From Antedon mediterranea (lineage: Eukaryota > Animalia > Echinodermata), in contig NC_092670.1 in the NCBI RefSeq assembly GCF_964355755.1, positions 13,502,795 through 13,566,794 of the forward strand: 64,000 nt of DNA, written 5' to 3'. Numbering within the stretch: the first letter of the stretch is position 1; each line of letters begins with the position of its first letter. Shown piece by piece: positions 7,497 through 64,000 of this stretch. A model generated the notes under the pieces. The model worked only from the letters and a program-made list of their open reading frames with translations. It did not search any database and was not told the DNA's origin. The position numbers were made by a program, and so were the translations under genes.

Positions 7497-8340
7497 ATTC
7501 ATTTCATTTTATTTTTTCATTTCTTTATTCGACAACAAGCGGTCCAGGGATTGCGACAGCAACAGAGCGCCATAACACATTTGTGTCCGCAATCCCTGTA
7601 ACATACAACTTAATACAAGTTAAAAATGAATATAAAATATACAGAATATATAAAAAATTTAATTAATTTGTATTACTGTATTACACAATTTAAAATACAC
7701 CTATACAATTAAAATAAATCTAGCGTTGATCAAGCAGATATTTTTTCAATTTCGACAGGAAATTTTTCAAAGGAAGAGTAACTGCTTGATCTTTGATTAT
7801 GGAGGGTAGTGATGACCATATAACAGGAAAATTGTTGATAGACGAATATTTTAAAGTATCGGTACGTGCAAAAGGGTGGACAAATGTGAGTAATTCAGGA
7901 TGGCGTTGATTGATATGGATATTGTTATTTACAGTACTACAAAAAGTTACATTATAAAAACAACGAAATATAAAGAAAATTAAAATCATTAAACGTCTAT
8001 CACGTAAGGATAACCAACCCAAAGTTATTAAACGTTCGTCGTATGATATAGGTCCGCAGTGGGGTCCCAGAATACGTCTAGAGGCCCGTCGTTGAACCTG
8101 TTCGAGGCGTTTTATGTGTCCTCCATTTCTGGGGCCCCACGCCGGCAAACCATACTCTAGAATAGGTAGCACCAAAGTTTTGTACAGACACGAAATCGCG
8201 TCTGGAGAACAATTTCCAGCTACAGAAAAAATAAAGTCTAACATTCGATTAGCTTTAGATATTAGATTATCGATTTGAACATTCCAATTCAGTTTAGAAT
8301 CGATATGTACTCCTAAATGTTTATGGCTATCAACCATAAT
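7497..8340 (-). mobile_element. 3' fragment of a CR1/L2/Jockey-group LINE (RT C-terminal region, 3'UTR, tail)
   Basis: ORF 7720-8337 has HKHLGVHIDSKLNW, LYKTLVLPILEYG and LEQVQRRASR; AATAAA with a degenerate (TGAAA)n tail at ~7497-7530; 3'UTR inverted repeat 7545-7555/7588-7598. Confidence 0.9.
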
Positions 8341-37799: not shown

Positions 37800-40700
37800 T
37801 CAATCAATCAATCAATCAAAGTAACATTTATTTCTCTTGTCTTTCATAGGAAATAAAAATTAACAGTAAAAATTATTAAAATAAGAGGGGCAACATTCCT
37901 AAAAAGCAAAGCTTGTATAAGGCAGCCCATAGAAAATGAAAAAAAAAAAAACAGGACAACACGGGAACCGGAAACAGGACAAAAACAGTAATGAAGACTT
38001 TTAGATTCAGGGTACCGAAAAGACTAAATATCAAAACTACAATGAGTGAAAGGATAATTAAACATAACTAGATAAGAGGTGCCGTTTCAATTTAAAAAAA
38101 AAACTCTTCTTAGACAAAGCACTTTTTATATTAACTGGTACGTTATCCCAAAGTTTAGGACCAGTGAACTTAATGCTATATGTTTAAAAGAAGTAGTTTT
38201 AAAAAAAGGAATACGTATTTGATTTGCGCTCCGAGTACTGTGGTTAGGAAAATTAAGATTGAAACTAAATAAATCATCAAAGTGTGATGGCAGGATCGAG
38301 TTTAGCCATGAATAGAGGAAAACACTTTGTTGAAGATGGTTAATATCCTGAATTTTAAGAAGACCAAATGAAGAAAATAAAGGATTGGAATGTGATAAAG
38401 GAGGAGCATTTGCTATGTATCTTACGGTTTTCTTTTGGATCAATAACAGTTTGTTTAAGTAGTACGGGTATGTATTACCCCAAATAATATTACAGTAAGT
38501 GAGGTAAGGGAGGATTAGTGAACAGTAAAGAATCCGGAGTATGTTTTGAGGGATGAAAGATGATAATCTATATATGATACCAGAACTTTTGGATATTTTG
38601 TTTTCGACTTGAGTAATCTGATGTTTCCAATTTAGCTTACAGTCCAGATAAACCCCAAGAAATTTAGTTTTCTCAACAATAGGTATTAATTGATCTTTAA
38701 TTTTTAGTTTAAAAGTACTAGTATTTAGTGGTATTTGTGAATTTTTGAACACCATACAACAGCACTTCTTTAGATTAACAGAAAGTTTGTTTGCAGAAAA
38801 GTCTGTTAAAATTTTGGGTAGATTTTCGGTTGATATTTTAAAAAGGGAATCTATATTTTTATCAGTGCAAATTAGGGTTGTGTCATCAGCATACAACAGA
38901 AAAGAAAACATATTTGAGGCATTATGGATATCATTTATGTATAATAAAAATAATAGAGGCCCAAGCAGGGAACCGTGAGGGACTCCACAAATAATAGGAA
39001 GAAAATCAGAAAGGGTGTGTTTAAATTTGTGTGCATTGCTTGCGGTTTGAAAGGTAGCTTTTGAATAAATTATATACAGGGCCACGGATTCCATAAGTAT
39101 GTAACTTATATAATAAAATATCGTGATCAATTGTATCAAAGGCCTTCGAGAGGTCAATGAAAAAACCAATGGCAAATTCACCCCTCTCGAAGGCCCCAAT
39201 AATTTCATTTGTTAATTGAAGAAGTGCGGTGGATGTATTATAGTTCTTACGAAAGCCAAATTGTTTATTGTAAAGATAAGATAATTGTATGTTCGATCAT
39301 AAATGAGGCGTTCAAGTATTTTGGAAAAGATCGGTAGCACTGATATAGGACGGTAATTACTGGAATCAGATTTGTCACCAGTTTTAAAAATAGGAGTTAC
39401 TTTAGCTAGTTTAAGGGTGTCAGGAAAGGTGCCATTTACAAAACAAAGATTGAAAATGTAGCAGAGGGGTTCGGAAATAAAAGGGATATGTTGTTTAATA
39501 ATAGACGGGTTAATATCATCAATGCCAGGTGCTTTACTATTTTTGAGGCGCATAACAATATCCATAATCTCAAAAGCAGTCACAGGATTGAGAAATAAAA
39601 AATTTATGGATGGCGGAGGGAGGTAATCCTTAAAATTTGCATTAGACGTGTCTATATTTTTGGTGAGGGTAGGTCCAATATTAACAAAAAAATTATTTAA
39701 ATGATTTGAAATTATGTTGGGATCATCCGTTAAGTTTCCTTAGCAATTTATAGTGGACTCTTCGAAATGCTTACTTTCATTCGTTTTTATGAGACTATTT
39801 ATAATTGTCCATGTTCCTTTGATATTATCCTTCTGCTGCTTAAACTTTTTTTCATAATAAATCGCGTTTTGTTAATTTTATTAAAGAGTTAAGGGAGTTA
39901 CGGAATTGCTTATATTCATTTATGTTTTTGTCATTCGGATAGCGGAGGGATTTGGAATACAGTTTTTGTTTATGCTTTATTGAATTTAAGAGTTCATCCG
40001 TCATCCAGGTCTTTATTTTTTTTTTCCTGCAGACTGCTCTTGAATTGGAAAATGTTTATCATACAGTCGTTTGAATTCAGTTTCAAATGAAAGTAAAGCA
40101 ATATTAGGATCATCCGTACCATAAACACCAGTCCAATTCATGTTAGACAAATCGTTGTTTATGTTTGAAATATTTGTTTCGTTAAATATTCTGGGTATGA
40201 TTAGGGCTTACATAGTTTTTGGGACGGTTTGGTATATTTGATAAGGGTGTAATGTTAATAATGGGCAAATGATCACTAATGTCACTATAGAAAAGTCCAG
40301 ATAGACTTGATGATTCAATTTGATTAGATAATATATTGTCAATTAATGTTGCTGACGTTCGGGTAATACGAGTTGGTCTATTGATTAAGGGTAAAAGGAA
40401 ATTACTAAAGACAGAGTTAGCAAAATTGTTGGATTGATTATCGGACTGATGTTTAAGTAGGTCAATGTTAAAATCACCTAATAAGTAAATTTTTTTTGTT
40501 GGTTTTTGCTAGATTATTTAACAGGAGATCAAAAGCGTCAATAAAATCATTCGTATCAAGAGATGGTGCCCTATAGATTACACCAACAATAATGTTTTGA
40601 TTGGATTCAAGTTCAAGTTCAATAAAAAGGGAGTCGCATAGGGAGGGGTTTAGGAAAAGATCAGTTCTCTCTTTGAACACATTGTTATTTCGAACATACA

Positions 40701-41680
40701 GTCGTACTACACCTCCACCAGCCCGCCCTAGTCTGTTTTTTGAAATAAAAGAATAACTGGAGATATTGGTTAATGGATTATCATCTTTCAACCAGGTTTC
40801 CGAGACTGCAATTATATCGAAATCATAATTTACATTGGTTAAAAATAATTTGAAAGAATCAATGTTATGAAGTAAACTTCTAGAATTAATATGCAAAGAA
40901 GAAAAGTGTTTCAAGTTACTGAGCTCTCCAATTAAGTTGGTTAGTTGGTCAGGTTGATAGTACTTATAATTGAGCTGGATAGAGGAAGAGAAGAAATTGG
41001 TATCAGGGTCAAAGTCATGAACATGTTTATCATAGTCTGCGTATGGGTTGAAAATTAAATTATTTAATCGATCTTGGTTAGGAAATGTTTCGGTACAGGG
41101 GTTCATTTGGGAAGAAAATGACATATAAACAAGTACAAATCCAACACAAAAACAAAACCAGATAAACTGGGGACAGGTTAATGAGAAAAATAAATGTACC
41201 AAGTGGAATACCAGAGATCAGTCTCCATTAGAGATAAAAGTGCCTACACATTTTTTTTTTCTTGAAAAAAAAAATTTAAAAAATGTCTTATTAATGTTGT
41301 AGAAATATAAACGAGAACAATTATTTCAATAATGAATTAGGAAATTCAGAAAAAGAAATTATGAATAAACAAGTTGAGGAAACACTTTATATGTAAGGTA
41401 AATAAATTAATAATAATTTCAAAAATTAAGAGTTTATGCAAACAAAATATGTTCTTGAAAAATCAAATGGATCTAAACAGTTCCATGTATGTGTAAGATA
41501 AGAGTTAAATGTTTTCAAGATCAGCAAAAGAACGAATTGGCTTCACAACATCACGGCCTTTAACTTGGATCAATGCAAACACTCTTCCATCTACCGACCA
41601 TGCTGACCATACCCTACTATGCTCACTTGTTTTGCGTAACAGATCGATGCGTTTACGGGTTAAGTCTTCCTGTATGGAAG
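37800..41680 (-). mobile_element. 5'-truncated, frameshifted non-LTR retrotransposon (CR1/L2/Crack-like): ORF1 C-terminus, APE endonuclease, reverse transcriptase, 3' tail
   Basis: ORF1 remnant ~41670-41505 (EDLTRKRIDLL...AWSVDGRVF...DLENI*); APE motifs IIAVSETWL and RAGGGV (ORF 40474-41202); RT motifs KAPGIDDI, NYRPISVLP, GVPHGSLLGPLLFLLYINDI and LYADDT split over frameshifted ORFs 39212-39583 and 38126-39208; AATAAA then (TTGA)n tail at 37800-37833. Confidence 0.93.
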
Positions 41681-42005: not shown

Positions 42006-42772
42006 TTATCCATTACAAAAAGATCCTTGACAAGCCGCAAAATAAAACCACTGTTTACCGATGTTCGTCGATACCAGCATTTTTTGATAAATCTTGATAT
42101 CCTTGCTCATACAATCCCTATATATTATTTCGAGGCCAGTAGATGTGATTGTATGACCCCACTGAAATAGAAATCATAAAAGTAAATCGTATGCAAATGA
42201 TTTGTCGAAACTGTTTGATAATAGTATACAAAAATACGGTAAAACTAATAGGGCAAATATAAAACATCCTTTTTTTGCGGTTAGTTATTAATGCTTTTGA
42301 AACCATTAATTCACTTACACCACATAATTTATCTTTTCCACATTCAACCTTAATACCATAGTCAAAACAATCTGGGATTACATATGTTGGGTCCAAAAAC
42401 TCTCCCACATTAGAGCACTTGTAACATTCGAGTGAGTTTACTAAAAAAACAAAATAAATTAAAAAAAGGTATTTTATTGATACACATTTTATTAAAAATG
42501 AATCGATTTTTCTTCTATTACTTGAGGACCTATTCACAAACTTTTTCTTCTAGTTCGAAACCGTGAGAAAATTCCCTACGGTTCTTTATTATACCCAGAT
42601 GACAATGAAATGGGAGTAAAGTATCTTGACTATGCTACAAGCAATATATATTTGACATACCGAAGCGATGCCTCTCACATGCTTGTTACAGAATGATTGA
42701 ATCACATAAATAAGTCCAATTACCTTGGTAAGTAAAAAGACTGCAAACTGCTACAAAGATGATCAACTTCAT
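42006..42772 (-). CDS. Secreted three-finger (Ly6/uPAR) protein, paralog B, ~108 aa, 8 Cys
   Basis: Exons 42772-42724 (MKLIIFVAVCSLFTYQ), 42440-42319 (VNSLECYKCSN...DCFD...ECGKDKLCG) and 42161-42006 (WGHTITSTGLEIIYRDCMSKDIKIYQ...WFYFAACQGSFCNG*); same exon structure and phases as paralog A. Confidence 0.88.
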
Positions 42773-44608: not shown

Positions 44609-45745
44609 GCGAGGAGGCTTCGCATTTTTCTATCTCCTCCTACGATAATTGTTTTTAATAGCTGAAAACCGGTTGAACAGCTAGAGTACACCATCATAAT
44701 GTTGAAGACAGGCCGATTTTCTTTAAAAAATACTATTTTGATAGATTTAATATACGATTATACAAATGTATTGATTTGCGATGAATGGAACATCCCAATC
44801 TCTCAGTCTGCCAGAGTTTGGTTTAACACAAGTACTGTAGGTAAATTTATGAGCCCTTGGTTTAACACATACGGTAGGTAAATATATGGGCCCTTTGAGA
44901 ATAAACTTGCAATACTTTGACAATACTGTAAATACCTATTAACTATTTTTCATTTGAATCGAACATTTCTTACTGTGAATGTTCGTACTGTTAGATGTAA
45001 TATAAAAATATATACAAATAAACTTTATTACTGAGACTGTGGATAGGCTCTACTGTTAGATATACAAATAAACTTTATACTGACATTTCCTTCTCAACGT
45101 TTGTATCAATTAATAATTACCAAAAATATAAACGTCGTAGTGGTGTATCGTGACATGTACTTTAATATTTCAATCGATTATGACAGTGACAGTTTTAACA
45201 AAGTATTAAATCGCAAATGTTTTAGGCCTACTGTATTTAGAGGTATATTATTTATAGGCCTATAAAACATGAACAAAATATTTCGTTACTCAGTGGATAA
45301 AGAATATATTTAAAAATTGTTCCTCTTTGTACCTATCCGCTTTCCCATCCCTCAACCCTAATGTTACATAGCGAGGAGGCTTCGCATTTTCCTATCTCCT
45401 CCTACGATAATTGTTTTTAATAGCTGAAAACCGGTTGAACAGCTAGAGTACACCATCATAATGTTGAAGACAGGCCGATTTTCTTTAAAAAATACTATTT
45501 TGATAGACTGCTAGAGTACACCATCATAATGTTGAAGACAGGCCGATTTTCTTTAAAAAAATACTATTTTGATAGATTTAATATACGATTATACAAATGT
45601 ATTGATTTGCGATGAATGGAACATCCCAATCTCTCAGTCTGCCAGAGTTTGGTTTAACACAAGTACTGTAGGTAAATTTATGAGCCCTTGGTTTAACACA
45701 TACGGTAGGTAAATATATGGGCCCTTTGAGAATAAACTTGCAATA
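44609..45745 (+). repeat. ~305-bp direct duplication (44609-44914 and 45371-45745); second copy has an extra internal ~68-bp tandem duplication
   Basis: GCGAGGAGGCTTCGCATT...GAGAATAAACTTGCAATA occurs twice; GCTAGAGTACACC...TTTTGATAGA repeated at 45442 and 45510. Confidence 0.9.
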
Positions 45746-46859
45746 GGTTCGGAAAATGTTAAAAACCAATTTCTATTATTTGAATCGGTAAACAGTTTCC
45801 ATTTATTATACATTGATAATGAAACATGAAATATTCCTATTTATGTCCCTCGAGGTTCATTACAATTTATATTTAGTAGTCCCACGGACTTCATCTTAGT
45901 CACTCCCCCGAGTGCTAAGGCCAAATTTATGATACCCTACTTTCTATGTAAGTTTAGTTACAGTTAGTTCTTGACGATAATACAACGAATTTAGGTTACA
46001 CCCTTCGGCCGCGAAAACGTTTCTGTACAAATATGATACCGATTGGCTTTATTTCATTCAACAGCGACCATAATCTCGCCAATTACAGGATAGATAAACT
46101 ATTTTATTATTGATGTGCTTATAAATTAAGACTCATGTAAACAGCTTGATTACATCATTTTACAGACAAACGAAACTTTTTTAAACCTACTGTTTCAATA
46201 ACTGAGTATAATACTGTATACGTTTTCATAAGTAAGTGCATATACATTTTCGTGTTTTCATTGACGAGATTGTAATAGTAACTTCAGTAACTATTACAGT
46301 ACTTATTTATTATACGACACAAGACAATTGTATCTGACAGGTACGTACATTATTCTAAAAAAATAAGTCTAGATAGATCCCTTAGGCGTCATAAATCACA
46401 GGCCAACAAATCAGTACTCATGACAGAAATTCGACCCAGTTTGGTTCACACAAATGTTTACAGGAAGTTTAACACCACAACCGATGATTTGCCCTAAATA
46501 TTTAGGTAGACTACAGTTTAATTTTTCACTGAATAGGAGCTTGAATTTCCGATTTCCATTTCGCAGAATGTCTAGGTCTATTTATTGGTTATCCGCAACG
46601 AAGTTGCAGGATAACCTCTTGTGATTGTACGAAATCATCATCATCATCATCATCTTTTTCTTAATTGGTTATCCGCAACGAAGTTGCAGGATAACCTCTT
46701 GTGATTGTACGAAATCATCATTGGTTATCCGCAACGAAGTTGCAGGATAACCTCTTGTGATTGTACGAAATCATCATCATCATCATCATTGGTTATCCGC
46801 AACGAAGTTGCAGGATAACCTCTTGTGATTGTACGAAATCATCATCATCATCATCTTTT

Positions 46860-48479
46860 TTGGTTATCCGCAACGAAGTTGCAGGATAACCTCTTGTAAT
46901 TGTACGAAATCATCATCATCATCATCATCATCATCAACTTTTTATTCTTCTTCTTTCTTTCTGTATGATTTTTGTGTAACGCTTTTCTCTAAAACTCGCA
47001 AACATAACATTTCGGTAACTATCTTAACATATTGACATTTACGTAACGTCGTCAAGCGAAGCTTTTCATGACGTTTACAATTGCGCAACGTGACTTACGC
47101 GCGATTTAACGATTTTGTCGTATTTAACATAGCTCGACAACCAAATAACATTTCAACTTGAAAATTTGCAAAAGTTTAATTTATATCATGCGCTAACTTT
47201 CTGTTGAAAAAAAATTGCGTGTTTTACACAAAGTTACGCGCGCACGCGCATTTAAAATTTCAAAATGCGCAAAATTAATTTATAATCAACTTTCTACGCG
47301 TTTCATGTCGTTTTAAGCATGTCAAAAATTCCCACACGTGCGCACATTTCTACGTGTGCGGTGCGCACGTAGCATTGAAAACGTATTTTTTTCGCGTGAT
47401 TTATGTTTTTCCAGCCTTTTCTAGTAATTTTACCAAATTTTAAACAATTTCGACTTAAAGATACGTCATACGAGCACGTCGAATTGGACAATTTGCGCGT
47501 GTTTTTTATGAAAAGGTTAAAAAATTCGTTTAAAATATGCCTTTTTTTAATCAGTCGTAATTTCTAAACTAGACGGTCAAATTTTTGTGGATGACATATT
47601 CTAGAAGTAGATGAGTTGTAGATATCGGATCAGGTATTAATATGGCTAACCGGACATTGTGACGTCATCGTATGGCCACGCGAATATAAAATTTAGGATT
47701 TTTGTATCTTTCGTCATAGCTCATCACATTGAATAGAGCGCATCTCCACTTATCCGTTTTCCATTTTCACCCCGATTTTGATATTGTCTAGGTCAATCAA
47801 CTATCTTTCGCATGAGTTAAAAATATTTTAATTTTTTTGACGTCATCATGCCTAAAAATTTAAATCACGTGTGGCATCAATTTCATCTTTACAGTAAATT
47901 TTAATCTGTTATAGCTCGTAAGAATAAAATGTGATAATCACGATTAAAACTTTTTCTGGAAGCTATTGGATTGTAGATATGAAATTATGTAAAAATGTTG
48001 CCAATCGGATGTTGTGACGTCATCATATGGCCAGTTAAATAAAAAAGGTCGTATTTTCATCTTTTGCGTCATAATTCATTACATTTAAAAGAGCGCGCAT
48101 CAATATTTCACGTATTCAAATTTCTTCTACACGCTAATACGTTGTTGCTGAGATAATTTCCTTTCGGAATTGCTAACTTAGCGTTTCATTTTAAAACCGT
48201 CAACATGTTAAAAATTGCAATAAATAGCGGGTCCCGTAATTTCACCTATTCTATGTATGTCACTGTATGTAATATGGATACAGATTATACTGTGTATATA
48301 CTATATATGAATTTAAATAATAAAATTCAGCAATAACAACATATCATATTCTTCAGTTCAGGTCATAATGCCAACGTGAACACTTCCTTTTGTCCTCAAC
48401 CTATCCCCTTATATGTTAATGTTGCACCACTTGCGCGGCGGATAACCAAACTCGTCAAAGTGACGAGTTACATGTCTAG
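46860..48479 (+). mobile_element. Representative uninterrupted element (1620 bp); other uninterrupted copies at 48554-50157, 53298-54889, 56540-58134 and 61199-62762
   Basis: Head, microsatellite, body, 3' subTIR, hairpin and CTAG are contiguous. Confidence 0.9.
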
Positions 48480-51400
48480 TTGGTTATCCGCAACGAAGTT
48501 GCAGGATAACCTCTTGTGATTGTACGAAATCATCATCAACATCTTTTTCTTAATTGGTTATCCGCAACGAAGTTGCAGGATAACCTCTTGTGATTGTACG
48601 AAATCATCATCATCATCATCATCAACTTTTTATTCTTCTTCTTTCTTTCTGTATGATTTTTGTGTAACGCTTTTCTCTAAAACTCGCAAACATAACATTT
48701 TGTTAACTATGTTAACATTTTGACATTTATGTAACGTCGTCAAGCGAAGCTTTTCATGATGTTTACAATTGCGCAACGTGACGTACGCGCGATTTAACGA
48801 TTTTATCGTATTTAACATATGTCGAAAACCAAATAACATTTTAAAGTGAAACTTTGCAAAAGTTTAATTTATATCATGCGCTAAATTTCTGTTGAAAAAA
48901 AATTGCGTGTTTTACACAAAGTTACGCGCGCACGCACATTTAAAATTTCAAAATGCGCAAAATTAATTTATAATCAACTTTCTACGCGTTTCATGTCGTT
49001 TTAAGCATGTCAAAAATTCCCACGCGTGCGCACATTTCTACGTGTGCGGTGCGCACGTAGCATTAAAAACGTATTTTTTTCGCGTGATTTATGTTTTTCC
49101 AGCCTTTTCTAGTAATTTTACCAAATTTTAAACAATTTCGACTTAAAGATACGTCATACGAGCACGTCGAATTGGACAATTTGCGCGCGTTTTTTATGAA
49201 AAGGTTAAAAAATTCGTTTAAAATATGTCTTTTTTTAAACACTCGTAATTTCTAAACTAGACGGTCAAATTTTTGTGGATGACATATTCTGGAAGTAGAT
49301 GAGTTGTAGATATCGGATCAGGTATTAATATGGCTTACCGGACATTGTGACGTCATCGTATGGCCACGCGAATATAAAATTTAGTATTTTTGTATCTTTC
49401 GTCATAGCTCATCACATTGAATAGAGCGCATCTCCACTTATCCGTTTTCCATTTTCACCCCGATTTTGATATTGTCTAGGTCAATCAACTATCTTTCGCA
49501 TGAGTTAAAAATATTTTAATTTTTTTGACGTCATCATGCCTAAAAATTTAAATCACGTGTGGCATCAATTTCATCTTTACAGTAAATTTTAATCTGTTAT
49601 AGCTCGTAAGAATAAAATGTGATAATCACGATTAAAACTTTTTCTGGAAGCTATTGGATTGTAGATATGAAATTATGTAAAAATGTTGCCAATCGGATGT
49701 TGTGACGTCATCATATGGCCAGTTAAATAAAAAAGGTCGTATTTTCATCTTTTTCGTCATAATTCATTACATTTAAAAGAGCGCACATCAATATTTAACG
49801 TATTCAAATTTCTTCTACACGCTAATACGTTGTTGCTGAGATAATTTGCTTTCGGAATTGCTAACTTCGCGTTTCATTTTAAAACCATCAACATGTTAAA
49901 AATTGCAATAAATAGCGGGTCCCGTAATTTCACCTATTCTACACTGTATGTGATATGGATACAGATTATACTGTGTATACTATATATGAATTTAAATAAT
50001 AAAATTCAGCAATAACAACAGATCATATTCTTCAGTTCAGGTCATAATGCCAACGTGAACACTTCCTTTTGTCCTCAACCTATCCCCTTAATGTTAATGT
50101 TGCACCACTTGCGCGGCGGATAACCAAACTCGTCAAAGTGACGAGTTACATGTCTAGTCTTCTTTCTTTCTGTATGATTTTTGTGTAACGCTTTTCTCTA
50201 AAACTTGCAAACATAACATTTTGTTAACTATGTTAACATTTTGACATTTATGTAACGTCGTCAAGCGAAGCTTTTCATGATGTTTACAATTGCGCAACGT
50301 GACGTACGCGCGATTTAACGATTTTCTCGTATTTAACATATGTCGAAAACCAAATAACATTTTAAAGTGAAACTTTGCAAAAGTTTAATTTATATCATGC
50401 GCTAACTTTCTGTTGAAAAAAAATTGCGTGTTTTACACAAAGTTACGCGCGCACGCGCATTTAAAATTTCAAAATGCGCAAAATTAATTTATAATCAACT
50501 TTCTACGCGTTTCATGTCGTTTTAAGCATGTCAAAAATTCCCACGCGTGCGCACATTTTTACGTGTGCGGTGCGCACGTAGCATTGAAAACGTATTTTTT
50601 TTGCGTGATTTATGTTTTTCCAGCATTTTCTAGTAATTTTACCAAATTTTAAACAATTTCGACTTAAAGATACGTCATACGAGCACGTCGAATTGGACAA
50701 TTTGCGCGCGTTTTTTATGAAAAGGTTAAAAAATTCGTTTAAAATATGCCTTTTTTTAAACAGTCGTAATTTCTAAACTAGACGGTCAACTTTTTGTGGA
50801 TGACATATTCTGGAAGTAGATGAGTTGTAGGTATCGGATCAGGTATTAATATGGTTAACCGGACATTGTGACGTCATCGTATGGCCACGCGAATACAAAA
50901 TTTAGGATTTTTGTATCTTTCGTCATAGCTCATCACATTGAATAGAGCGCATCTCCACTTATTCGTTTTCCATTTTCACCCCAATTTTGATATTGTCTAG
51001 GTCAATCAACTATCTTTCGCATGAGTTAAAAATATTTTAATTTTTTTGACGTCATCATGCCTAAAAATTTAAATCACGTGTGGCATCAATTTCATCTTTA
51101 CAGTAAATTTTAATCTGTTATAGCTCGTAAGAATAAAATGTGATAATCACGATTAAAACTTTTTCTGGAAGCTATTGGATTGTAGATACGAAATTATGTA
51201 AAAATGTTGCCCATCGGATGTTGTGACGTCATCATATGGCCAGTTAAATAAAAAAGGTCGTATTTTCATCTTTTGCGTCATAATTCATTACATTTAAAAG
51301 AGCGCGCATCAATATTTCACGTATTCAAATTTCTTCTACACGCTAATACGTTGTTGCTGAGATAATTTCCTTTCGGAATTGCTACCTTCGCGTTTCATTT

Positions 51401-54400
51401 TTAAACCGTCAACATGTTAAAAATTGCAATAAATAGCGGGTCCCGTAATTTCACCTATTCTACACTGTATGTCACTGTATGTGATATGGATACAGATTAT
51501 ACTGTGTATACTATATATGAATTTAAATAATAAAATTCAGCAATAACAACATATCATATTCTTCAGTTCAGGTCATAATGCCAACGTGAACACTTCCTTT
51601 TGTCCTCAACCTATCTCCTTAATGTTAATGTTGCACCACTTGCGCGGCGGATAACCAAACTCGTCAAAGTGACGAGTTACATGTCTAGTCTTAATCTTCT
51701 TTCTTTCTGTATGATTTTTGTGTAACGCTTTTCTCTAAAACTTGCAAACATAACATTTTGTTAACTATGTTAACATTTTGACATTTATGTAACGTCGTCA
51801 AGCGAAGCTTTTCATGATGTTTACAATCGCGCAATGTGACGTACGCGCGATTTAACGATTTTCTCGTATTTAACATATGTCGAAAACCAAATAACATTTA
51901 AAAGTGAAACTTTGCAAAAGTTTAATTTATATCATGCGCTAACCTTCTGTTGAAAAAAAATTGCGTGTTTTACACAAAGTTACGCGCGCACGCGCATTTA
52001 AAATTTCAAAATGCGCAAAATTAATTTCTAATCAACTTTCTACGCGTTTCATGTCGGTTTAAGCATGTCAAAAATTCCCACGCATGCGCACAATTTTACG
52101 TGTGCGGAGCGCACGTAGCATTGAAAACGTATTTTTTTCGCGTGATTTATGATTTTCCAGCCTTTTCTAGTAATTTTACCAAATTTTAAACAATTTTGAC
52201 TTAAAGATACGTCATACGAGCACGTCGAATTGGACAATTTGCGCGCGTTTTTTATGAAAACGTTAAAAAATTCGTTTAAAATATGCCTTTTTTAAAACAG
52301 TCGTAATTTCTAAACTAAACGGTCAACTTTTTGTGGATGTCATTTTCTGGAAGTAGATGAGTTGTAGATATTGGATCAGGTATTAATATGGCTAACCGGA
52401 CATTGTGATGTCATCGTATGGCCACGCAAATATAAAATTTAGGATTTTGTATCTTTCGTCATAGCTCATCACATTGAATAGAGCGCATCTCCACTTATCC
52501 GTTTTCCATTTTCACCCCGATTTTGATATTGTCTAGGTCAATCAACTATCTTTCGCATGAGTTAAAAATATTTTAATTTTTTTTACGTCATCGTGCTTAA
52601 AAATTTAAATCACGTGTGGCATTAATTTCATCTTTACAGTAAATTTTAATCTGTTATAGCTCGTAAGAATAAAATGTGATAATCACGATTAAAACTTTTT
52701 CTGGAAGCTATTGGACTGTAGATACGAAATTATGTAAAAATGTTGCCAATCGGATGTTGTGACGTAATCATATGGCCAGTTAAATAAAAAAGGTCGTATT
52801 TTCATCTTTTGCGTCATAATTCATTACATTTAAAAGAGCGCGCATCAATATTTCACGTATTCAAATTTCTTCTACACGCTAATACGTTGTTGCTGAGATA
52901 ATTTCCTTTCGGAATTGGTACCTTCGCGTTTCATTTTAAAACCGTCAACATGTTAAAAAATTGCAATAAATAGCGGGTCCCGTAATTTCACCTATTCTAC
53001 ACTGTATGTGATATGGATACAGATTATACTGTGTATACTATATATGAATTTAAATAATAAAATTCAGCAATAACAACATATCATATTCTTCAGTTCAGGT
53101 CATAATGCCAACGTGAACACTTCCTTTTGTCCTCAACCTATCCCCTTAATGTTAATGTTGCACCACTTGCGCGGCGGATAACCAAACTCGTCAAAGTGAC
53201 GAGTTACATGTCTAGTCAACTTTTTGGTTATCCGCAACGAAGTTGCAGGATAACCTCTTGTGATTGTACGAAATCATCAACATCAACTTTTTATTTTTTG
53301 GTTATCCGCAACGAAGTTGCAGGATAACCTCTTGTGATTGTACGAAATCATCATCATCTTTTTTGTCATCTTCTTTCTTTCTGTATGATTTTTGTGTAAC
53401 GCTTTTCTCTAAAACTTGCAAACATAACATTTTGTTAACTATGTTAACATTTTGACATTTATGTAACGTCGTCAAGCGAAGCTTTTCATGATGTTTACAA
53501 TTGCGCAACGCGACGTACGCGCGATTTAACGATTTACTCGTATTTAACATATGTCGAAAACCAAATAACATTTTAAAGTGAAACTTTGCAAAAGTTTAAT
53601 TTATATCATGCGCTAACTGTCTGTTGAAAAAAAATTGCGTGTTTTACACAAAGTGACGCGCGCACGCGCATTTAAAATTTCAAAATGCGCAAAATTAATT
53701 TATAATCAACTTTCTACGCGTTTCATGTCGTTTTAAGCATGTCAAAAATTCCCACGCGTGCGCACATTTTTACGTGTGCGGTGCGCACGTAGTATTGAAA
53801 ACGTACTTTTTTCGCGTGATTTATATTTTTCCAGCCTTTTCTAGTATTTTTACCAAATTTTAAACAATTTCGACTTAAAGATACGTCATACGAGCACGTC
53901 GAATTGGACAATTAGCGCGCGTTTTTTATGAAAAGGTTAAAAAATTCGTTTAAAATATGCCTTTTTTTAAACAGTCGTAATTTCTAAACTAGACGGTCAA
54001 CTTTTTGTGGATGGCATATTCTGGAAGTAGATGAGTTGTAGATATCGGATCAGGTATTAATATGGCTAACCGGACATTGTGACGTCATTGTATGGCCACG
54101 CGAATATAAAATTTAGGATTTTTGTATCTTTCGTCATAGCTCATCACATTGAATAGAGCGCATCTCCACTTATCCGTTTTCCATTTTCACCCCGATTTTG
54201 ATTTTGTCTAGGTCAATCAAGTATCTTTCGTATGAGTTAAAAATATTTTAATTTTTTTGACGTCATCATGCCTAAAAATTTAAATCACGTGTGGCATTAA
54301 TTTCATCTTTACAGTAAATTTTAATCTGTTATAGCTCGTAAGAATAAAATGTGATAATCAGGATTAAAATTTTTTCTGGAAGCTATTGGATTGTAGATAC

Positions 54401-57400
54401 GAAATTATGTAAAAATGTTGCCAATTGGATGTTATGACGTCATCATATGGCCAGTTAAATAAAAAAGGTCGTATTTTCATCTTTTGCGTCATAATTCATT
54501 ACATTTAAAAGAGCGCGCATCAATATTTCACGTATTAAAATTTCTTCTACACGCTAATACGTTGTTGCTGAGATAATTTCCTTTCGGAATTGCTACCTTC
54601 GCGTTTCATTTTAAAACCGTCAACATGTTAAAAATTGCAATAAATAGCGGGTCCCGTAATTTCACCTATTCTACACTGTATGTGATATGGATACAGATTA
54701 TACTGTGTATATACTATATGAATTTAAATAATAAAATTCAGCAATAACAACATATCATATTCTTCAGTTCAGGTCATAATGCCAACGTGAACACTTCCTT
54801 TTGTCCTCAACCTATCCCCTTAATGTTAATGTTGCACCACTTGCGCGGCGGATAACCAAACTCGTCAAAGTGACGAGTTACATGTCTAGTCTTCTTTCTT
54901 TCTGTATGATTTTTGTGTAACGCTTTTCTCTAAAACTTGCAAACATAACATTTTGTTACCTATGTTAACATTTTGACATTTATGTAACGTCGTCAAGCGA
55001 AGCTTTTCATGATGTTTACAATTGCGCAACGTGACGTACGCGCGATTTAACGATTTTCTCGTATTTAACATATGTCGAAAACCAAATAACATTTTAAAGT
55101 GAAACTTTGCAAAAGTTTAATTTATATCATGCGCTAACTTTCTGTTGAAAAAAAATTGCGTGTTTTACACAAAGTTACGCGCGCACGCGCATTTAAAATT
55201 TCAAAATGCGCAAAATTAATTTATAATCAACTTTCTACGCGTTTCATGTCGTTTAAAGCATGTCAAAAATTCCCACGCGTGCGCACATTTTTACGTGTGC
55301 GGTGCGCACGTAGCACGGAAAACGATTTTTTTTCGCGTGATTTATGTTTTTCCAGCTTTTTCTAGTAATTTTACCAAATTTTAAACAATTTCGACTTAAA
55401 GATACGTCATACGAGCACGTCGAATTGGACAATTTGCGCGCGTTTTTTATGAAAATGTTAAAAAATTCGTTTAAAATATGCCTTTTTTTAAACAGTCGTA
55501 ATTTCTAAACTAGAAGGTCAACTTTTTGTGGATGGGATATTCTGGAAGTAGATGAGTTGTAGATATCGTATCAGGTATTAATATGGCTAACCGGACATTT
55601 TGACGTCATCGTATGGCCACGCGAATATAAAATTTAGGATTTTTGTATCTTTCGTCATAGCTCATCACATTGAATAGAGCGCATCTCCACTTATACGTTT
55701 TCCATTTTTACCCCGATTTTGACATTGTCTAGGTCAATCAACTATCTTTCGCATGAGTTAAAAATATTTTAATTTTTTTGACGTCATCATGCCTAAAAAT
55801 TAAAATCACGTGTGGCAGTAATTTCATCTTTACAGTAAATTTTAATCTGTTATAGCTCGTAAGAATAAAATGTGATAATCACGATTAAAACTTTTTCTGG
55901 AAGCTATTGGATTGTAGATACGAAATTATGTAAAAATGTTGCCAATCGGATGTTGTGACGTCATCATATGGCCAGTTAAATAAAAAAGGTCGTATTTTCA
56001 TCTTTTGCGTCATAATTCATTACATTTAAAAGAGCGCGCATCAATATTTCACGTATTCAAATTTCTTCTACACGTTAATACGTTGTTGCTGAGATAATTT
56101 GCTTTCGGAATTACTACCTTCGCGTTTCATTTTAAAACCGTCAACATGTTAAAAATTGCAATAAATAGCGGGTCCCGTAATTTCACCTATTCTACACTGT
56201 ATGTGATATGGATACAGATTATACTGTGTATACTATATATGGATTTAAATAATAAAATTCAGCAATAACAACATATCATATTCTTCAGTTCAGGTCATAA
56301 TGCCAACGTGAACACTTCCTTTTGTCCTCAACCTATCCCCTTAATGTTAATGTTTCACCACTTGCGCGGCGGATAACCAAACTCGTCAAAGTGACGAGTT
56401 ACATGTCTAGTTATTAGTTATCCGCACTCAGCGGATAACTCCTTGTAACTGTCCTGTTTCATCATCTTTTTTTTTTTTCTGTATTATTGGTTATCCGCAA
56501 CGAAGTTGCAGGATAACCTCTTGTGATTGTACGAAATCATTGGTTATCCGCAACGAAGTTGCAGGATAACCTCTTGTGATTGTACGAAATCATCATCAAC
56601 ATCTTTTTCTTAATCTTCTTTCTTTCTGTATGATTTTTGTGTAACGCTTTTCTCTAAAACTTGCAAACATAACATTTTGTTAGCTATGTTAACATTTTGA
56701 CATTTATGTAACGTCGTCAAGCGAAGCTTTTCATGATGTTTACAATTGCGCAACGTGACGTACGCGCGATTTAACGATTTTCTCGTATTTAACATATGTC
56801 GAAAACCAAATAACATTTTAAAGTGAAACTTTGCAAAAGTTTAATTTATATCATGCGCTAACTTTCTGTTGAAAAAAAATTGCGTGTTTTACACAAAGTT
56901 ACGCGCGCACGCGCATTTAAAATTTCAAAATGCGCGAAATTAATTTATAATCAACTTTCTACGCGTTTCATGTCGTTTTAAGCATGTCAAAAATTCCCAC
57001 GCGTGCGCACATTTTTACGTGTGCGGTGCGCACGTAGCATTGAAAACGTATTTTTTTCGCGTGATTTATGTTTTTCCAGCCTTTTCTAGTAATTTTACCA
57101 AATTTTTAACAATTTCGACTTAAAGATACGTCATACGAGCACGTCGAATTGGACAATTTGCGCGCGTTTTTTATGAAAAGGTTAAAAAATTCGTTTAAAA
57201 TATGCCTTTTTTTAAACAGTCGTAATTTCTAAACTAGACGGTCAACTTTTTGTGGATGACATATTCTGGAAGTAGATGAGTTGTAGGTATCGGATCAGGT
57301 ATTAATATGGCTAACCGGACATTGTGACGTCATCGTATGGCCACGCGAATATAAAATTTAGGATTTTTGTATCTTTCGTCATAGCTCATCACATTGAATA

Positions 57401-59679
57401 GAGCGCATCTCCACTTATCCGTTTTCCATTTTCACCCCGATTTTGATATTGTCTAGGTCAATCAACTATCTTTCGCATGAGTTCAAAATATTTTAATTTC
57501 TTTGACGTCATCATGCCTAAAAATTTAAATCACGTGTGGCATCAATTTCATCTTTACAGTAAATTTTAATCTGTTATAGCTCGTAAGAATAAAATGTGAT
57601 AATCACGATTAAAACTTTTTCTGGAAGCTATTGGATTGTAGATACGAAATTATGTAAAAATGTTGCCAATCAAATGTTGTGACGTCATCATATGGCCAGT
57701 TAAATAAAAAAAGTCGTATTTTCATCTTTTGCGTCATAATTCATTACAGTTAAAAGAGCGCGCATCAATATTTCACGTATTCAAATTTCTTCTACACGCT
57801 AATACGTTGTTGCTGAGATAATTTCCTTTCGGAATTGCTACCTTTGCGTTTCATTTTAAAACCGTCAACATGTTAAAAATTGCAATAAATAACGGGTCCC
57901 GTAATTTCACCTATTCTACACTGTAAGTGATATGGATACAGATTATACTGTGTATACTATATATGAATTTAAATAATAAAATTCAGCAATAACAACATAT
58001 CATATTCTTCAGTTCAGGTCATAATGCCAACGTGAACACTTCCTTTTGTCCTCAACCTATCCCTTTAATGTTAATGTTGCACCACTTGCGCGGCGGATAA
58101 CCAAACTCGTCAAAGTGACGAGTTACATGTCTAGTCATCATCTTTTTCTTAATCTTCTTTCTTTCTGTATGATTTTTGTGTAACGCTTTTCTCTAAAACT
58201 TGCAAACATAACATTTTGTTAACTATGTTAACATTTAGACATTTATGTAACGTCGTCAAGCGAAGCTTTTCATGATGTTTACAATCGCGCAACGTGACGT
58301 ACGCGCGATTTAACGATTTTCTCGTATTTAACATATGTCGAAAACCAAATAACATTTTAAAGTGAAACTTTGCAAAAGTTTAATTTATATTATGCGCTAA
58401 CTTTCTGTTGAAAAAAAATTGCGTGTTTTACACAAAGTTACGCGCGCACGCGCATTTAAAATTTCAAAATGCGCAAAATTAATTTATAATCAACTTTCTA
58501 CGCGTTTCATGTCGTTTTAAGCATGTCAAAAATTCCCACACGTGCGCACATTTTTACGTGTGCGGTGCGCACGTAGCATTGAAAACGTATTTTTTTCGCG
58601 TGATTTATGTTTTTCCAGCCTTTTCTAGTAATTTTACCAAATTTTAAACAATTTCGACTTAAAGATACGTCATACGAGCACGTCGAATTGGACAATTTGC
58701 GCGCGTTTTTATGAAAAGGTTAAAAAATTCGTTTAAAAAATGCCTTTTTTTAAACAGTCGTAATTTCTAAACTAGACGGTCAACTTTTTGTGGATGGGAT
58801 ATTCTGGAAGTAGATGAGTTGTAGATATCGGATCAGGTATTAATATGGCTAACCGGACATTGTGACGTCATCGTATGGCCACGCGAATATAAAATTTAGG
58901 ATTTTTGTATCTTTTGTCATAGCTCATCACATTGAATAGAGCGCATATCCACTTATCCGTTTTCAATTTTCACCCCGATTTTGACATTGTCTAGGTCAAT
59001 CAACTATCTTTCGCATGAGTTAAAAATATTTTAATTTTTTTGACGTCATCATGCCTAAAAATTAAATTCACGTGTGGCAGTAATTTCATCTTTACAGTAA
59101 ATTTTAATCTGTTATAGCTCGTAAGAATAAAATGTGATAATCACGATTAAAACTTTTTCTGGAAGCTATTGGATTGTAGATACGAAATTATGTAAAAATG
59201 TTGCCAATTGGATGTTGTGACGTCATCATATGGCCAGTTAAATGAAAAAGGTCGTATTTTCATCTTTTGCGTCATAATTCATTACATTTAAAAGAGCGCG
59301 CATCAATATTTCACGTATTCAAATTTCTTCTACACGCTAATACGTTGTTGCTGAGATAATTTCCTTTCGGAATTGCTACCTTCGCGTTTCATTTTAAAAC
59401 CGTCAACATGTTAAAAATTGCAATAAATAGCGGGTCCCGTAATTTCACCTATTCTATGTATGTCACTGTATGTGATATGGATACAGATTATACTGTGTAT
59501 ACTATATATGAATATAAATAATAAAATTCAGCAATAACAACATATCATATTCTTCAGTTCAGGTCATAATGCCAACGTGAACACTTCCTTTTGTCTTCAA
59601 CCTATCCCCTTAATGTTAATGTTGCACAATTTGCGCGGCGGATAACCAAACTCGTCAAAGTGACGAGTTACATGTCTAG

Positions 59680-61198
59680 TTCTTTCTTTCTGTCATTTTT
59701 GTGCAGAGCATATCTCAAAAACGTGTAAAATTAACATTTCATAACTTTGTCAACATATGGGTATTCACCTGAAGTTGTGCTTTTCTATTTCTGAATGACG
59801 TCAGAATTGCACAACATGACTTACGCGCGTTTTAACGAATTTCGCGTATTTAACATACATCGAAAACCATATAACAATTTAAATTGAAACTTAACAAAAG
59901 TTTTAGTTATATCTTGCGCTAACTGACTTTGTAAAAAAAATGGCATGTTTTACACGAAGTTACGCGCGCACGCGCGTTTAAAATTTCCAAACGCGAAAAA
60001 TCAATTTCTAATCCACTTTCTACGCGTTTCATGTCATTTTGAGCAGGTAAAAAATTCCCACGCGTGCGCATTTTTTTACGCGCGCCGTGCGCACGTAGCG
60101 TTGAAAACAATTTTTTTCACGTGATTTATGTTTTTCCAGCCTTTTTTAGTAATTTTACCAACTTTTAAACGATTTAGACTTAAAATTACGTCATACGGGC
60201 ACGTCGAATTGGATAATTTACGTGGGTTTTTGATGAAAAAGGTAAAAAATTCGTTAAAATTTGTCAAAATTATGCCTTTTTTTAAACAGTCGTAATTTCT
60301 AAACTGGACGGTCAACTTTTTGTGGATGACATATTCTATAAGTTGATGAGGTGTAGATATCGGATCATGTAATAATATGGCTAACCGGACATTGTGACGT
60401 CATCGTATGGCCACGCGAATATAAAATATAGGATTTTTGTATCTTTCATCATAGCGCATGACATTTAATAGAGCGCATCTCCAATTATCTGTTTTCCATT
60501 TTTACCCCGATTTTTATATTATCTAGGTCAATCAACTATCTTTCGTATGAGTTAAAAATATTTTAATTTTTATGACGTCATCATGTCTAAAAATGTAAAT
60601 AACGTGGGTCACTTATTTTCGTCTTTACAGTAAATTTCAATCTGTTATAGCTCGTCAGAATAAAACGTGATAATCATGATTAAAACGTTTTCTGGAAGCT
60701 ATTGGATTGTAGATACGAATTTATGTAAACATTTTGCCAATCGGATGTTGTGACGTCATCATATGACCAGTTAAATAAAAAAAGTCGTATTTTCATCTTT
60801 TGCGTCATAATTCATCACATTTAAAAGAGCGCGCATCAATATTTTACGTATTTAAATTTCTTCTACACATTAATATGTTGTTGCCGAGATAATTTCCTTC
60901 CGAAATTGCTATCTTAGTATTTCATTTTGATACCGTCGCTATGTTAAAAATTGGAATAAATGGCGGGTCCAGTCATTTCACCTATTCTACACAGTATGTA
61001 ATATGTATACAGATTATATTGTATATATAATATGACACAAAATAACAGAATTCAGCAATAACAACATATCATATTATTCTTCAGTTCAGGTCATATTGCC
61101 ACAATCTTTTTCTGTGTGCAATATTCTAACGTATGACGTCTACGTGGCCTTTGTCGTGCGGATAACTAACTCGTCAAAGTGACGAGTTACATGTCTAG
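59680..61198 (+). mobile_element. Body of a divergent subfamily-B element whose head lies at 56414-56486
   Basis: Clearly diverged from the other bodies; its 3' subTIR TGCGGATAACTAA is the exact reverse complement of the variant head TTAGTTATCCGCA at 56414. Confidence 0.85.
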
Positions 61199-64000
61199 TT
61201 GGTTATCCGCAACGAAGTTGCAGGATAACCTCTTGTGATTGTACGAAATCAACCTGTATGATTTTTGTGTAACGCTTTTCTCTAAAACTCGCAAACATAA
61301 CATTTCGGTAACTATCTTAACATATTGACATTTACGTAACGTCGTCAAGCGAAGCTTTTCATGACGTTTACAATTGCGCAACGTGACTTACGCGCGATTT
61401 AACGATTTTGTCGTATTTAACATAGCTCGACAACCAAATAACATTTCAACTTGAAACTTTGCAAAAGTTTAATTTATATCATGCGCTAACTTTCTGTTGA
61501 AAAAAAATTGCGTGTTTTACACAAAGTTACGCGCGCACGCGCATTTAAAATTTCAAAATGCGCAAAATTAATTTATAATCAACTTTCTACGCGTTTCATG
61601 TCGTTTTAAGCATGTCAAAAATTCCCACGCGTGCGCACATTTTTACGTGTGCGGTGCGCACGTAGTATTGAAAACGTACTTTTTTCACGTGATTTATATT
61701 TTTCCAGCCTTTTCTAGTAATTTTACCAAATTTTAAACAATTTAGACTTAAAGATACGTCATACGAGCACGTCGAATTGGACAATTTGCGCGCGTTTTTT
61801 ATGAAAAGGTTAAAAAATTCGTTTAAAATATGCCTTTTTTAAAACAGTCGTAATTTCTAAACTAGACGGTCAACTTTTTGTGGATGGCATATTCTGGAAG
61901 TAGATGAGTTGTAGATATCGGATCAGGTATTAATATGGCTAACCGGACATTGTGACGTCATCGTATGGCCACGCGAATATAAAATTTAGGATTTTTGTAT
62001 CTTTCGTCATAGCTCATCACATTGAATAGAGCGCATCTCCACTTATCCGTTTTCCATTTTCACCCCGATTTTGATTTTGTCTAGGTCAATCAAGTATCTT
62101 TCGCATGAGTTAAAAATATTTTAATTTTTTTGACGTCATCATGCCTAAAAATTTTAATCACGTGTGGCATCAATTTCATCTTTACAGTAAATTTTAATCT
62201 GTTATAGCTCGTAAGAATAAAACTTGATAATCACGATTAAAACTTTTTCTGGAAGCTATTGGATTGTAGATACGAAATTATGTAAAAATGTTGCCAATCG
62301 GATGTTGTGACGTCATCATATGGCCAGTTAAATAAAAAAGGTCGTATTTTCATCTTTTGCGTCATAATTCATTACATTTAAAAGAGCGCGCATCAATATT
62401 TCACGTATTCAAATTTCTTCTACACGCTAATACGTTGTTGCTGAGATAATTTCCTTTCGGAATTGCTAACTTCGCGTTTCATTTTAAAACCGTCAACATG
62501 TTAAAAATTGTAATAAATAGCGGGTCCCGTAATTTCACCTATTCTACACTGTATGTGATATGGATACAGATTATACTGTGTATACTATATATGAATTTAA
62601 ATAATAAAATTCAGCAATAACAACAGATCATATTCTTCAGTTCAGTTCATAATGCCAACGTGAACACTTCCTTTTGTCCTCAACCTATCCCCTTAATGTT
62701 AATGTTGCACCACTTGCGCGGCGGATAACCAAACTCGTCAAAGTGACGAGTTACATGTCTAGTTCTTCTTCTTTCTTTCTGTATGATTTTTGTGTAACGC
62801 TTTTCTCTAAAACTCGCAAACATAACATTTCGGTAACTATGTTAACATTTTGACATTTATGTAACGTCGTCAAGCGAAGCTTTTCATGATGTTTACAATT
62901 GCGCAACGTGACGTACGCGCGATTTAACGATTTTCTCGTATCTAACATATGTCGAAAACCAAATAACATTTTAAAGTGAAACTTTGCAAAAGTTTAATTT
63001 ATATCATGCGCTAACTTTCTGTTGAAAAAAAATTGCGTGTTTTACACAAAGTTACGCGCGCACGCGTATTTAAAATTTCAAAATGCGCAAAATTAATTTA
63101 TAATCAACTTTCTACGCGTTTTATGTCGTTTTAAGCATGTCAAAAATTCCCACGCGTGCGCACATTTTTACGTGTGCGGTGCGCACGTAGCATTGAAAAC
63201 GTATTTTTTTCGCGTGATTTATGTTTTTCCAGCCTTTTCTAGCAATTTTACCAAATTTTAAACAATTTCGACTTAAAGATACGTCATACGAGCACGTCGA
63301 ATTGGACAATTTGCGCGCGTTTTTTATGAAAAGGTTAAAAAATTCGTTTAAAATATGCCTTTTTTTAAACAGTCGTAATTTCTAAACTAGACGGTCAACT
63401 TTTTGTGGATGACATATTCTGGAAGTAGATGAGTTGTAGATATCGGATCAGGTATTAATATGGCTAACCGGACATTGTGACGTCATCGTATGGCCACGCG
63501 AATATAAAATTTAGGATTTTTGTATCTTTCGTCATAACTCATCACATTGAATAGAGCGCATCTCCACCTATTCGTTTTCCATTTTCACCCTGATTTTGAT
63601 ATTGTCTAGGTCAATCAACTATCTTTCGCATGAGGTAAAAATATTTTAATTTTTTTGACGTCATCATGCCTAAAAATTTAAATCACGTGTGGCATCAATT
63701 TCATCTTTACAGTAAATTTTAATCTGTTATAGCTCGTAAGAATAAAATGTGATAATCACGATTAAAACTTTTTCTGGAAGCTATTGGATTGTAGATACGA
63801 AATTATGTAAAAATGTTGCCAATCGGATGTTGTGACGTCATCATATGGCCAGTTAAATGAAAAAGGTCGTATTTTCATCTTTTGCGTCATAATTCATTAC
63901 ATTTAAAAGAGCGCGCATCAATATTTCACGTATTCAAATTTCTTCTACACGCTAATACGTTGTTGCTGAGATAATTTCCTTTCGGAATTGCTACCTTCGC

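Follow-up and report, generated by a model that had tools for sequence, protein, structure and literature searches.

What fills the last 17 kb of a 64,000-nt stretch of the Antedon mediterranea (Echinodermata) genome (NC_092670.1, positions 13,502,795 to 13,566,794, forward strand; hereafter the window, numbered from its first base), and is the block that begins at 46585 the tandem array it resembles? Rather than a tandem repeat, these 17 kb hold a nested stack of one non-coding element of 1.6 kb, each copy of which sits just behind the front end of another. In our reading, to which we give a probability of roughly 0.75, the element belongs to the Helitron2/HINE type and the stack was built by repeated insertion into the tract 53-80 bases behind resident 5' hairpins.

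Front ends (heads) were located by a pattern search of the window, and heads and tails were then treated as opening and closing brackets in a stack parse. The search returns 13 heads, all on the + strand and exactly where a first-pass annotation of this DNA had placed them, together with 10 inverted copies of the head 12-mer near tails. That annotation had also counted 11 bodies; 10 of these have complete tails, each ending CTAG, and the eleventh is truncated by the window end. The parse closes 10 elements of 1,564-1,620 bp each and reaches a maximum depth of 6, leaving heads 46585, 46665 and 46721 unclosed. The copies, with the basis for each, are as follows.

46585..46664, + strand: outermost head and tract, possible orphan head (unclosed at the window end).
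46665..46720, + strand: second head, lying within 46585 at offset 80, with its body outside the window (parse, tract rejoining).
46721..64000, + strand: four-part copy (46721-46788, 53216-53223, 56411-56413, 62763-64000+), host of four blocks (0 differences from the type-A tract once rejoined).
46789..53215, + strand: split copy (46789-46859 + 51689-53215) whose single insertion site holds both 46860 and 48480 (parse, rejoining).
46860..48479, + strand: intact copy, 1,620 bp, with a 12-bp 5' asymmetric terminal inverted repeat (ATIR) in a hairpin, a CAT/T-rich tract, the body, the 3' ATIR (48438-48449), a 9-bp stem-loop and a CTAG end (parse, folding).
48480..51688, + strand: split copy (48480-48553 + 50158-51688), in a tail-to-head joint with 46860 (parse, rejoining).
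48554..50157, + strand: intact copy, innermost (parse).
53224..56410, + strand: split copy (53224-53297 + 54890-56410), one difference on rejoining (rejoining).
53298..54889, + strand: intact copy (parse).
56414..61198, + strand: variant-subfamily copy (56414-56486 + 59680-61198) with a co-varying 14-bp ATIR pair and a body ~15% diverged (parse, alignment, folding).
56487..59679, + strand: split copy (56487-56539 + 58135-59679) (parse, rejoining).
56540..58134, + strand: intact copy, innermost (parse).
61199..62762, + strand: intact copy without a tract, 1,564 bp, directly abutting the variant tail (parse, public contigs).

The proposed depth of six stands in part. A depth of four is verified and appears twice (46721>46789>48480>48554 and 46721>56414>56487>56540), the body of the shared host 46721 beginning at 62763 and continuing past the window end. 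Heads 46585 and 46665 have no body within the window; layers 5 and 6 hinge on sequence beyond it, and these two may be orphan heads.

Rejoining of the split copies supports the bracket-like pairing. All 120 assignments of the five split main heads to the five split bodies were scored by edit distance, taken to whichever intact tract was closest, after the number of CAT units and an optional AAC module had been collapsed and with the variant pair excluded. The assignment given by the parse yields distances of 0, 0, 0, 1 and 0, and this total of 1 is the lowest among the 120 permutations; a single permutation ties with it, by swapping two bodies that have identical starts, and the next best total is 7. 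In-silico excision likewise restores intact tracts at all five rejoinings named in the first-pass annotation, with one mismatch in total. The strongest check of nesting is an internal control that was absent from that annotation. Head 56414, which has an altered ATIR and a different hairpin, closes on the sole variant tail (61158-61198); this tail carries the compensating ATIR change, and its body is 14-16% from all other bodies. The variant match is one of the 10 closed pairs.

The main bodies are pairwise 1.5-3.5% apart, none closer than 1.5%. Every body has its own substitutions and, the window-cut copy excepted, at most one indel column. The bodies are also mosaic: 5% of informative site pairs less than 100 bp apart are incompatible, against 35% in permutations (0 of 500 as low). 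Thus 46860 and 61199 are alike over their first ~220 body bases (1 difference), and in the next segment 61199 is nearest to 53298. Because of this divergence and mosaicism, the bodies are taken to come from different family members or donors rather than from a fresh concatemer.

Junctions of the same kind occur in public contigs, taken from 6 of 13 listed runs (X4, X6-X9, X12 and X13 were left aside). X10 and X11 are one sample and a possible source of the assembly, and hence are not independent support for the locus; contig depth is not copy number, and the lists of joints are minimum lists. In X10, 20,893 contigs match one copy, and depth ratios suggest, roughly, a copy number on the order of a thousand. 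Three of the 11 junction strings from public contigs are present in the window; since the other eight are absent from it, other self-insertion events exist. The absent junctions include a tail followed by a short tract piece and a head, a new head-into-head joint, variant heads in main tracts, and a tail joined directly to a variant head, the last at 22,848x versus ~300x for low-copy contigs. X1 and X3 each hold one tail-to-tract contig, X1 has in addition a head-tract-to-head contig, and X5, which bears another organism label, has a tail-to-head contig. These contigs, those of X1 and X3 among them, show that self-insertion junctions recur at other loci and in other samples. The tract-less joint recurs in 4 of 4 runs compared (21,115x in X10); the tract-less form, represented here by copy 61199 with no tract whatsoever, is a subfamily.

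One further X10 joint (56613 to 56431, 645x) shows a main tract entered by a third type of head, whose hairpin has a different loop; the insertion point is the one used in 46585 and 48480.

Could the stack be an artefact of assembly? The element is a high-copy repeat and the locus is unspanned by any contig examined, but the substitutions private to each body and the near-lack of indel columns (the window-cut copy apart) do not fit such an error, three window junction types recur in public contigs, and nested rejoinings exact to the base are not expected from a mis-join. An artefact is highly improbable.

Run X2 yields a closed contig of 1,594 nt (1,564 + 30 overlap) in which the tail leads directly into the head and the tract is missing; it agrees with 61199 at 23 of 27 and with 46860 at 24 of 27 listed letters. 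Such a contig would be expected of an extrachromosomal circle, which makes it a sign in support of rolling-circle mobilization, and equally of a homogeneous tandem whose flanks failed to assemble; contigs cannot separate the two. A closed head-to-tail contig of this sort, the mosaic bodies, and the Helitron concatemers and many-5'-end arrays described in a review (PMC12628747) are points for the view that the locus is a rolling-circle concatemer, or a tandem array formed by unequal crossover with heads amplified separately. At this locus that view is largely refuted and very unlikely to be right. Near-identical head-to-tail copies would mark a concatemer, whereas the stack has only 2 direct tail-head joints, one of which (61198/61199) joins two subfamilies; its bodies are 1.5-15% apart, and even the closest two differ by 1.5%. 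Crossover or head amplification would have disrupted the bracket order that the tract haplotypes and the variant pair still show. The earlier preference for nested self-insertion over a concatemer or simple tandem duplication is thus upheld by the parse, the rejoinings and the non-identical bodies.

The ends of the element identify its probable class. Main copies carry 12-bp ATIRs, the 5' copy at 0 bp and the 3' copy 30 bp from the end; variant ATIRs are 14 bp long, at 0 bp and 29 bp, respectively. These values fall within those of Helitron2/HLE2 (8-15 bp; 5' copy 0-2 bp and 3' copy ~20-30 bp from the end). The 5' hairpin encloses the ATIR (z -5.8 and -6.1; equally stable in 0 of 200 shuffles) and the 3' hairpin, with a 9-10 bp stem, lies downstream of the 3' ATIR (z -2.9 and -3.4), both as in Helitron2/HLE2. 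After 10 of 10 tails stands a T followed by T or C, matching the T|T or T|C insertion without target-site duplication (TSD) of that group, the T being assignable equally to the element or to the target. The rejoined hosts show no TSD, as had been claimed. Like HINE/DINE-1, the element is non-coding and has a microsatellite, the CAT/T-rich tract, behind its 5' subterminal inverted repeat (subTIR); the longest stop-to-stop frame is 107 aa (within 56540-61198), and an Rfam scan of the element gives no match. Helitron1 elements begin with 5' TC and have no terminal inverted repeats (TIRs), whereas this element starts with TT(G/A) at its 5' end and has ATIRs; it is nonetheless Helitron1-like in its terminal CTAG and in the many sites that can be read as A|T. 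By terminal structure, then, the element is assigned to the non-autonomous Helitron2/HINE group. The first-pass annotation, which had invoked the Helitron class defined by a hairpin and CTRR, is corrected on this point: the ends have asymmetric TIRs and two hairpins.

Why, then, do the copies enter one another at nearly the same place? All 12 internal insertions share one orientation and fall at offsets 53-80 of their host. Of these, 8 can be seen with both flanks and 2 with just the left one; the last 2 are doubled, standing at a site already in use. The two doubled insertions lie directly behind another copy's tail, and one of them (61198/61199) links two subfamilies. Counting both strands, an intact copy has 424 sites of matching dinucleotide type, of which 14 fall in the tract; among sites with at least 15 pyrimidines of 20 the figure is 10 of 30 (p=1.5e-4 for 8 events). 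The enrichment shrinks under tighter nulls because no other part of the element is as pyrimidine-rich as the tract, p for the 8 events passing from 1e-12 through 1.5e-4 (>=15 of 20) to 4e-3 (>=17 of 20), and all these p values are biased, the locus having been chosen for its appearance. The proposal that the element carries its own landing pad at nt ~50-85 fits the insertions of this locus, all 12 of which lie at offsets 53-80; the target may be either the microsatellite itself or a position close to the head.

The simplest alternative dispenses with self-recognition: a general preference for T/C-rich targets, combined with a permissive hot locus, would make the tract merely the best target at hand. 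One third to one half of the element's most pyrimidine-rich sites are indeed in the tract, and T-rich targets are what HINEs are published to prefer. Yet 2 of the 8 fully seen sites lie in CAT repeats, where just 12 and 14 of 20 bases are pyrimidines, and the flanking host DNA offers ~20 comparable sites per kb while a search of bases 1-46584 for further copies or decayed remnants found none (blastn best E 0.018; no nhmmer match). Direct tail-to-head joints are moreover common (the variant-head joint above), and 10 of 11 bodies are of one subfamily despite variant letters at ~45-75% of depth at seven positions. We regard this alternative as rather unlikely.

Several observations weigh against repeated, targeted self-insertion and temper the probability given to it. 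The enrichment reaches only 4e-3 at the strictest pyrimidine cut, in what is the most pyrimidine-rich part of the element; the known preference of HINEs is for T-rich targets (PMC4067079, PMC7492417); the loose 5' flanks of variant heads in X10 are T-rich (21 and 9 contigs); and, across the genome, a targeting effect over and above T-richness is not established. The locus is spanned by no long read and by none of the public contigs examined. The array had been said to record insertion order, which holds for its topology, but no inward age gradient accompanies it: private substitutions number 5-23 per 1,245 columns, and inner copies stand above their host in several pairs. Finally, scans of metagenome, viral contigs and prokaryote genomes for the 3'-hairpin pattern found no autonomous Rep/helicase partner with the same termini, which is why we infer the rolling-circle mechanism from structure only. 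One metagenome match (L001) was rejected as a candidate partner, being a chance hairpin between bacterial genes.

Arithmetic of growth bears on how such a stack could arise. The visible tail-to-tract share is ~0.6-3% of tail depth, against 0.03-0.5% predicted by pyrimidine-rich sites alone, a rough comparison that assumes a genome of 280-800 Mb and 500-3,000 copies. This is suggestive of genome-wide self-targeting and not proof of it. If growth is modeled simply at these rates, 3,000 founders yield no more than ~1e-15 stacks of 13 copies; raising the rate to 30% brings the number only to 3e-4. Uniform self-targeting could therefore not build a stack of 13, and self-insertions must be concentrated, by a hot locus, by pre-nested blocks or by subfamily-specific homing. 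The last is hinted at by the letters of the variant: at 7 of 15 positions checked, the variant letter makes up ~45-75% of depth in both runs and occurs in 0 of 10 main bodies. A single variant-type body among 11 has p between 0.014 and 5e-5 under independence, depth being possibly biased, and a single-subfamily burst would look alike.

The failure of uniform self-targeting also favors composite transposition, in which pre-nested doublets or triplets, or multi-headed chimeras, formed elsewhere or on circles and moved as blocks. This would require fewer local events, some insertions would then not have been independent and made on the spot as the first-pass annotation supposed, and the open heads could be orphans. 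Multi-headed copies of the fungal FoHeli transpose as units, and some X10 junction types reach many times single-copy depth (2,292x and 5,857x versus ~300x). However, the four blocks within 46721 differ in site and content, and each closed head has its own body, which head-only chimeras would lack. The blocks would themselves require self-insertion, so that composite transposition alters the place and number of events and not their kind. As an account of this locus it is possible, though on the unlikely side.

For repeated self-insertion, the following mechanism may be proposed. Different family copies would insert repeatedly into the pyrimidine-rich tract behind the 5' hairpin of resident copies, mobilized through a circle by the Rep/helicase transposase of an autonomous partner and integrating at A/T-then-T-pyrimidine sites on the pyrimidine-rich strand. 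The transposase is probably tethered to resident heads, which it must bind as donor ends, and tethering would cause the tract beside a head to be struck far more than T-rich sites elsewhere in the element. Every new copy would supply a new head and tract. To reach 13 copies, extra local feedback would be needed, whether a hot locus, a like-into-like subfamily preference or delivery of pre-nested blocks. We offer only tentatively, as less probable than not, the wider proposal that Helitron2/HINE transposases home on resident 5' heads of their own subfamily and insert within a narrow zone next to them, with local positive feedback, and that this is a general, conserved route of self-nesting, from fungi to animals, to pseudo-satellite stacks. 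If it were true, multi-kilobase pseudo-satellite stacks would be misread as tandem arrays, and tract-less subfamilies would escape interruption. Among arrays now classed as satellites or as rolling-circle concatemers, some may be stacks formed by insertion. The central question is which factor focuses the insertions (tethering to heads, recognition of the subfamily or feedback at the locus), and the stack offers a testable handle on Helitron2 target choice, head tethering versus T-richness.

The window as a whole is 33% GC and contains no long genes. Outside the stack, remains of broken retrotransposons of long interspersed nuclear element (LINE) type lie at 38126-41217 (-) and 7720-8340 (-); a Pfam RVT_1 match at 38129-39211 is the sole match among 6 frames scanned, and other frames of the LINE regions resemble, by eye, pieces of endonuclease or reverse transcriptase, with no Pfam match. 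The frame 42118-42549 (-) has a cysteine pattern like that of a small secreted-protein exon, also with no Pfam match. A minisatellite at 25187-25598 consists of 5.5 copies of a ~64 bp unit made of shorter subunits. Immediately to the left of the stack, one 37-bp two-copy repeat is found at both 44818-44895 and 45649-45726, ~830 bp apart, and a 68-bp doublet (45442-45576) lies beside these repeats, which suggests a local duplication. A likeness of the left flank to the element body, noticed by eye, is unsupported by blastn or nhmmer.

How does the stack compare with known systems? Helitron2 elements are described with asymmetric TIRs, two hairpins and compensatory changes between subfamilies (Bao & Jurka 2013, PMC3627910), with T|(T/C) as the target (summarized in PMC13085455), and the Xenopus HLE2 element HelenXT233 has two left ends in direct repeat (PMC11417382). 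The Antedon element shares with them ATIRs of 8-15 bp, a terminal 5' ATIR within a hairpin, a 3' ATIR that lies ~30 bp from the end, with a hairpin downstream of it, and the 5' T (PMC3627910, PMC11417382); unlike the present locus, a deep balanced stack is not described in the available excerpts of those two papers. With HINE/DINE-1 (PMC4067079; oyster Cg_HINE, PMC7492417) it shares a 5' subTIR with inverted repeat, a microsatellite, a non-coding body, a 3' subTIR and a stem-loop, as well as the lack of a TSD, T-rich targets and high copy number. It differs in having no central tandem repeat, and the excerpts of the same two papers do not describe the HINE microsatellite as a site of self-insertion.

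Self-nesting as such is already in print, and the suggestion that this mode might be unreported must be withdrawn: it has been proposed for FoHeli (PMC5148889) and for maize (PMC3288121). In Fusarium oxysporum, FoHeli1 copies carry repeats of their first 31, 65, 73 or 85 nt, for which self-insertion close to the 5' terminus was proposed as the cause (Chellapan 2016, PMC5148889); FoHeli copies with up to five 5' termini, and circles, have been detected (PMC13342296). The length range of the repeated 5' terminus, 31-85 nt, is like the offsets of 53-80 here. In FoHeli1, however, a single tail serves many heads and the nested parent is mostly hypothetical, with one nested example (PMC5148889, PMC13342296), whereas 10 closed copies here retain both of their ends and the parent structure can be seen. 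Multi-terminus maize Helitrons have been derived from nests, in a paper that cites a preference for insertion near or inside other Helitrons (PMC3288121); these are Helitron1 elements, for which its excerpts describe no narrow site within the element. McGurk & Barbash (2018, PMC5932611) attribute tandem transposable elements, a substrate for satellites, to insertion-site preference and not to rolling-circle replication. By their route a TSD preserves the target and the dimers lie side by side, whereas in the Antedon stack the target is part of the element and the copies nest. A review (PMC12628747) covers both nested Helentron loci and rolling-circle arrays.

No description of a deep balanced stack in a HINE microsatellite was found in the open-access main-text literature, and the supplements of PMC5148889 and PMC13342296 may show balanced nests. 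The concept of self-nesting near the 5' end is not new; what this locus offers is a clean, balanced record. The stack directly shows the nested parent structure postulated for multi-headed Helitrons, at a depth and regularity not found in the literature searched.

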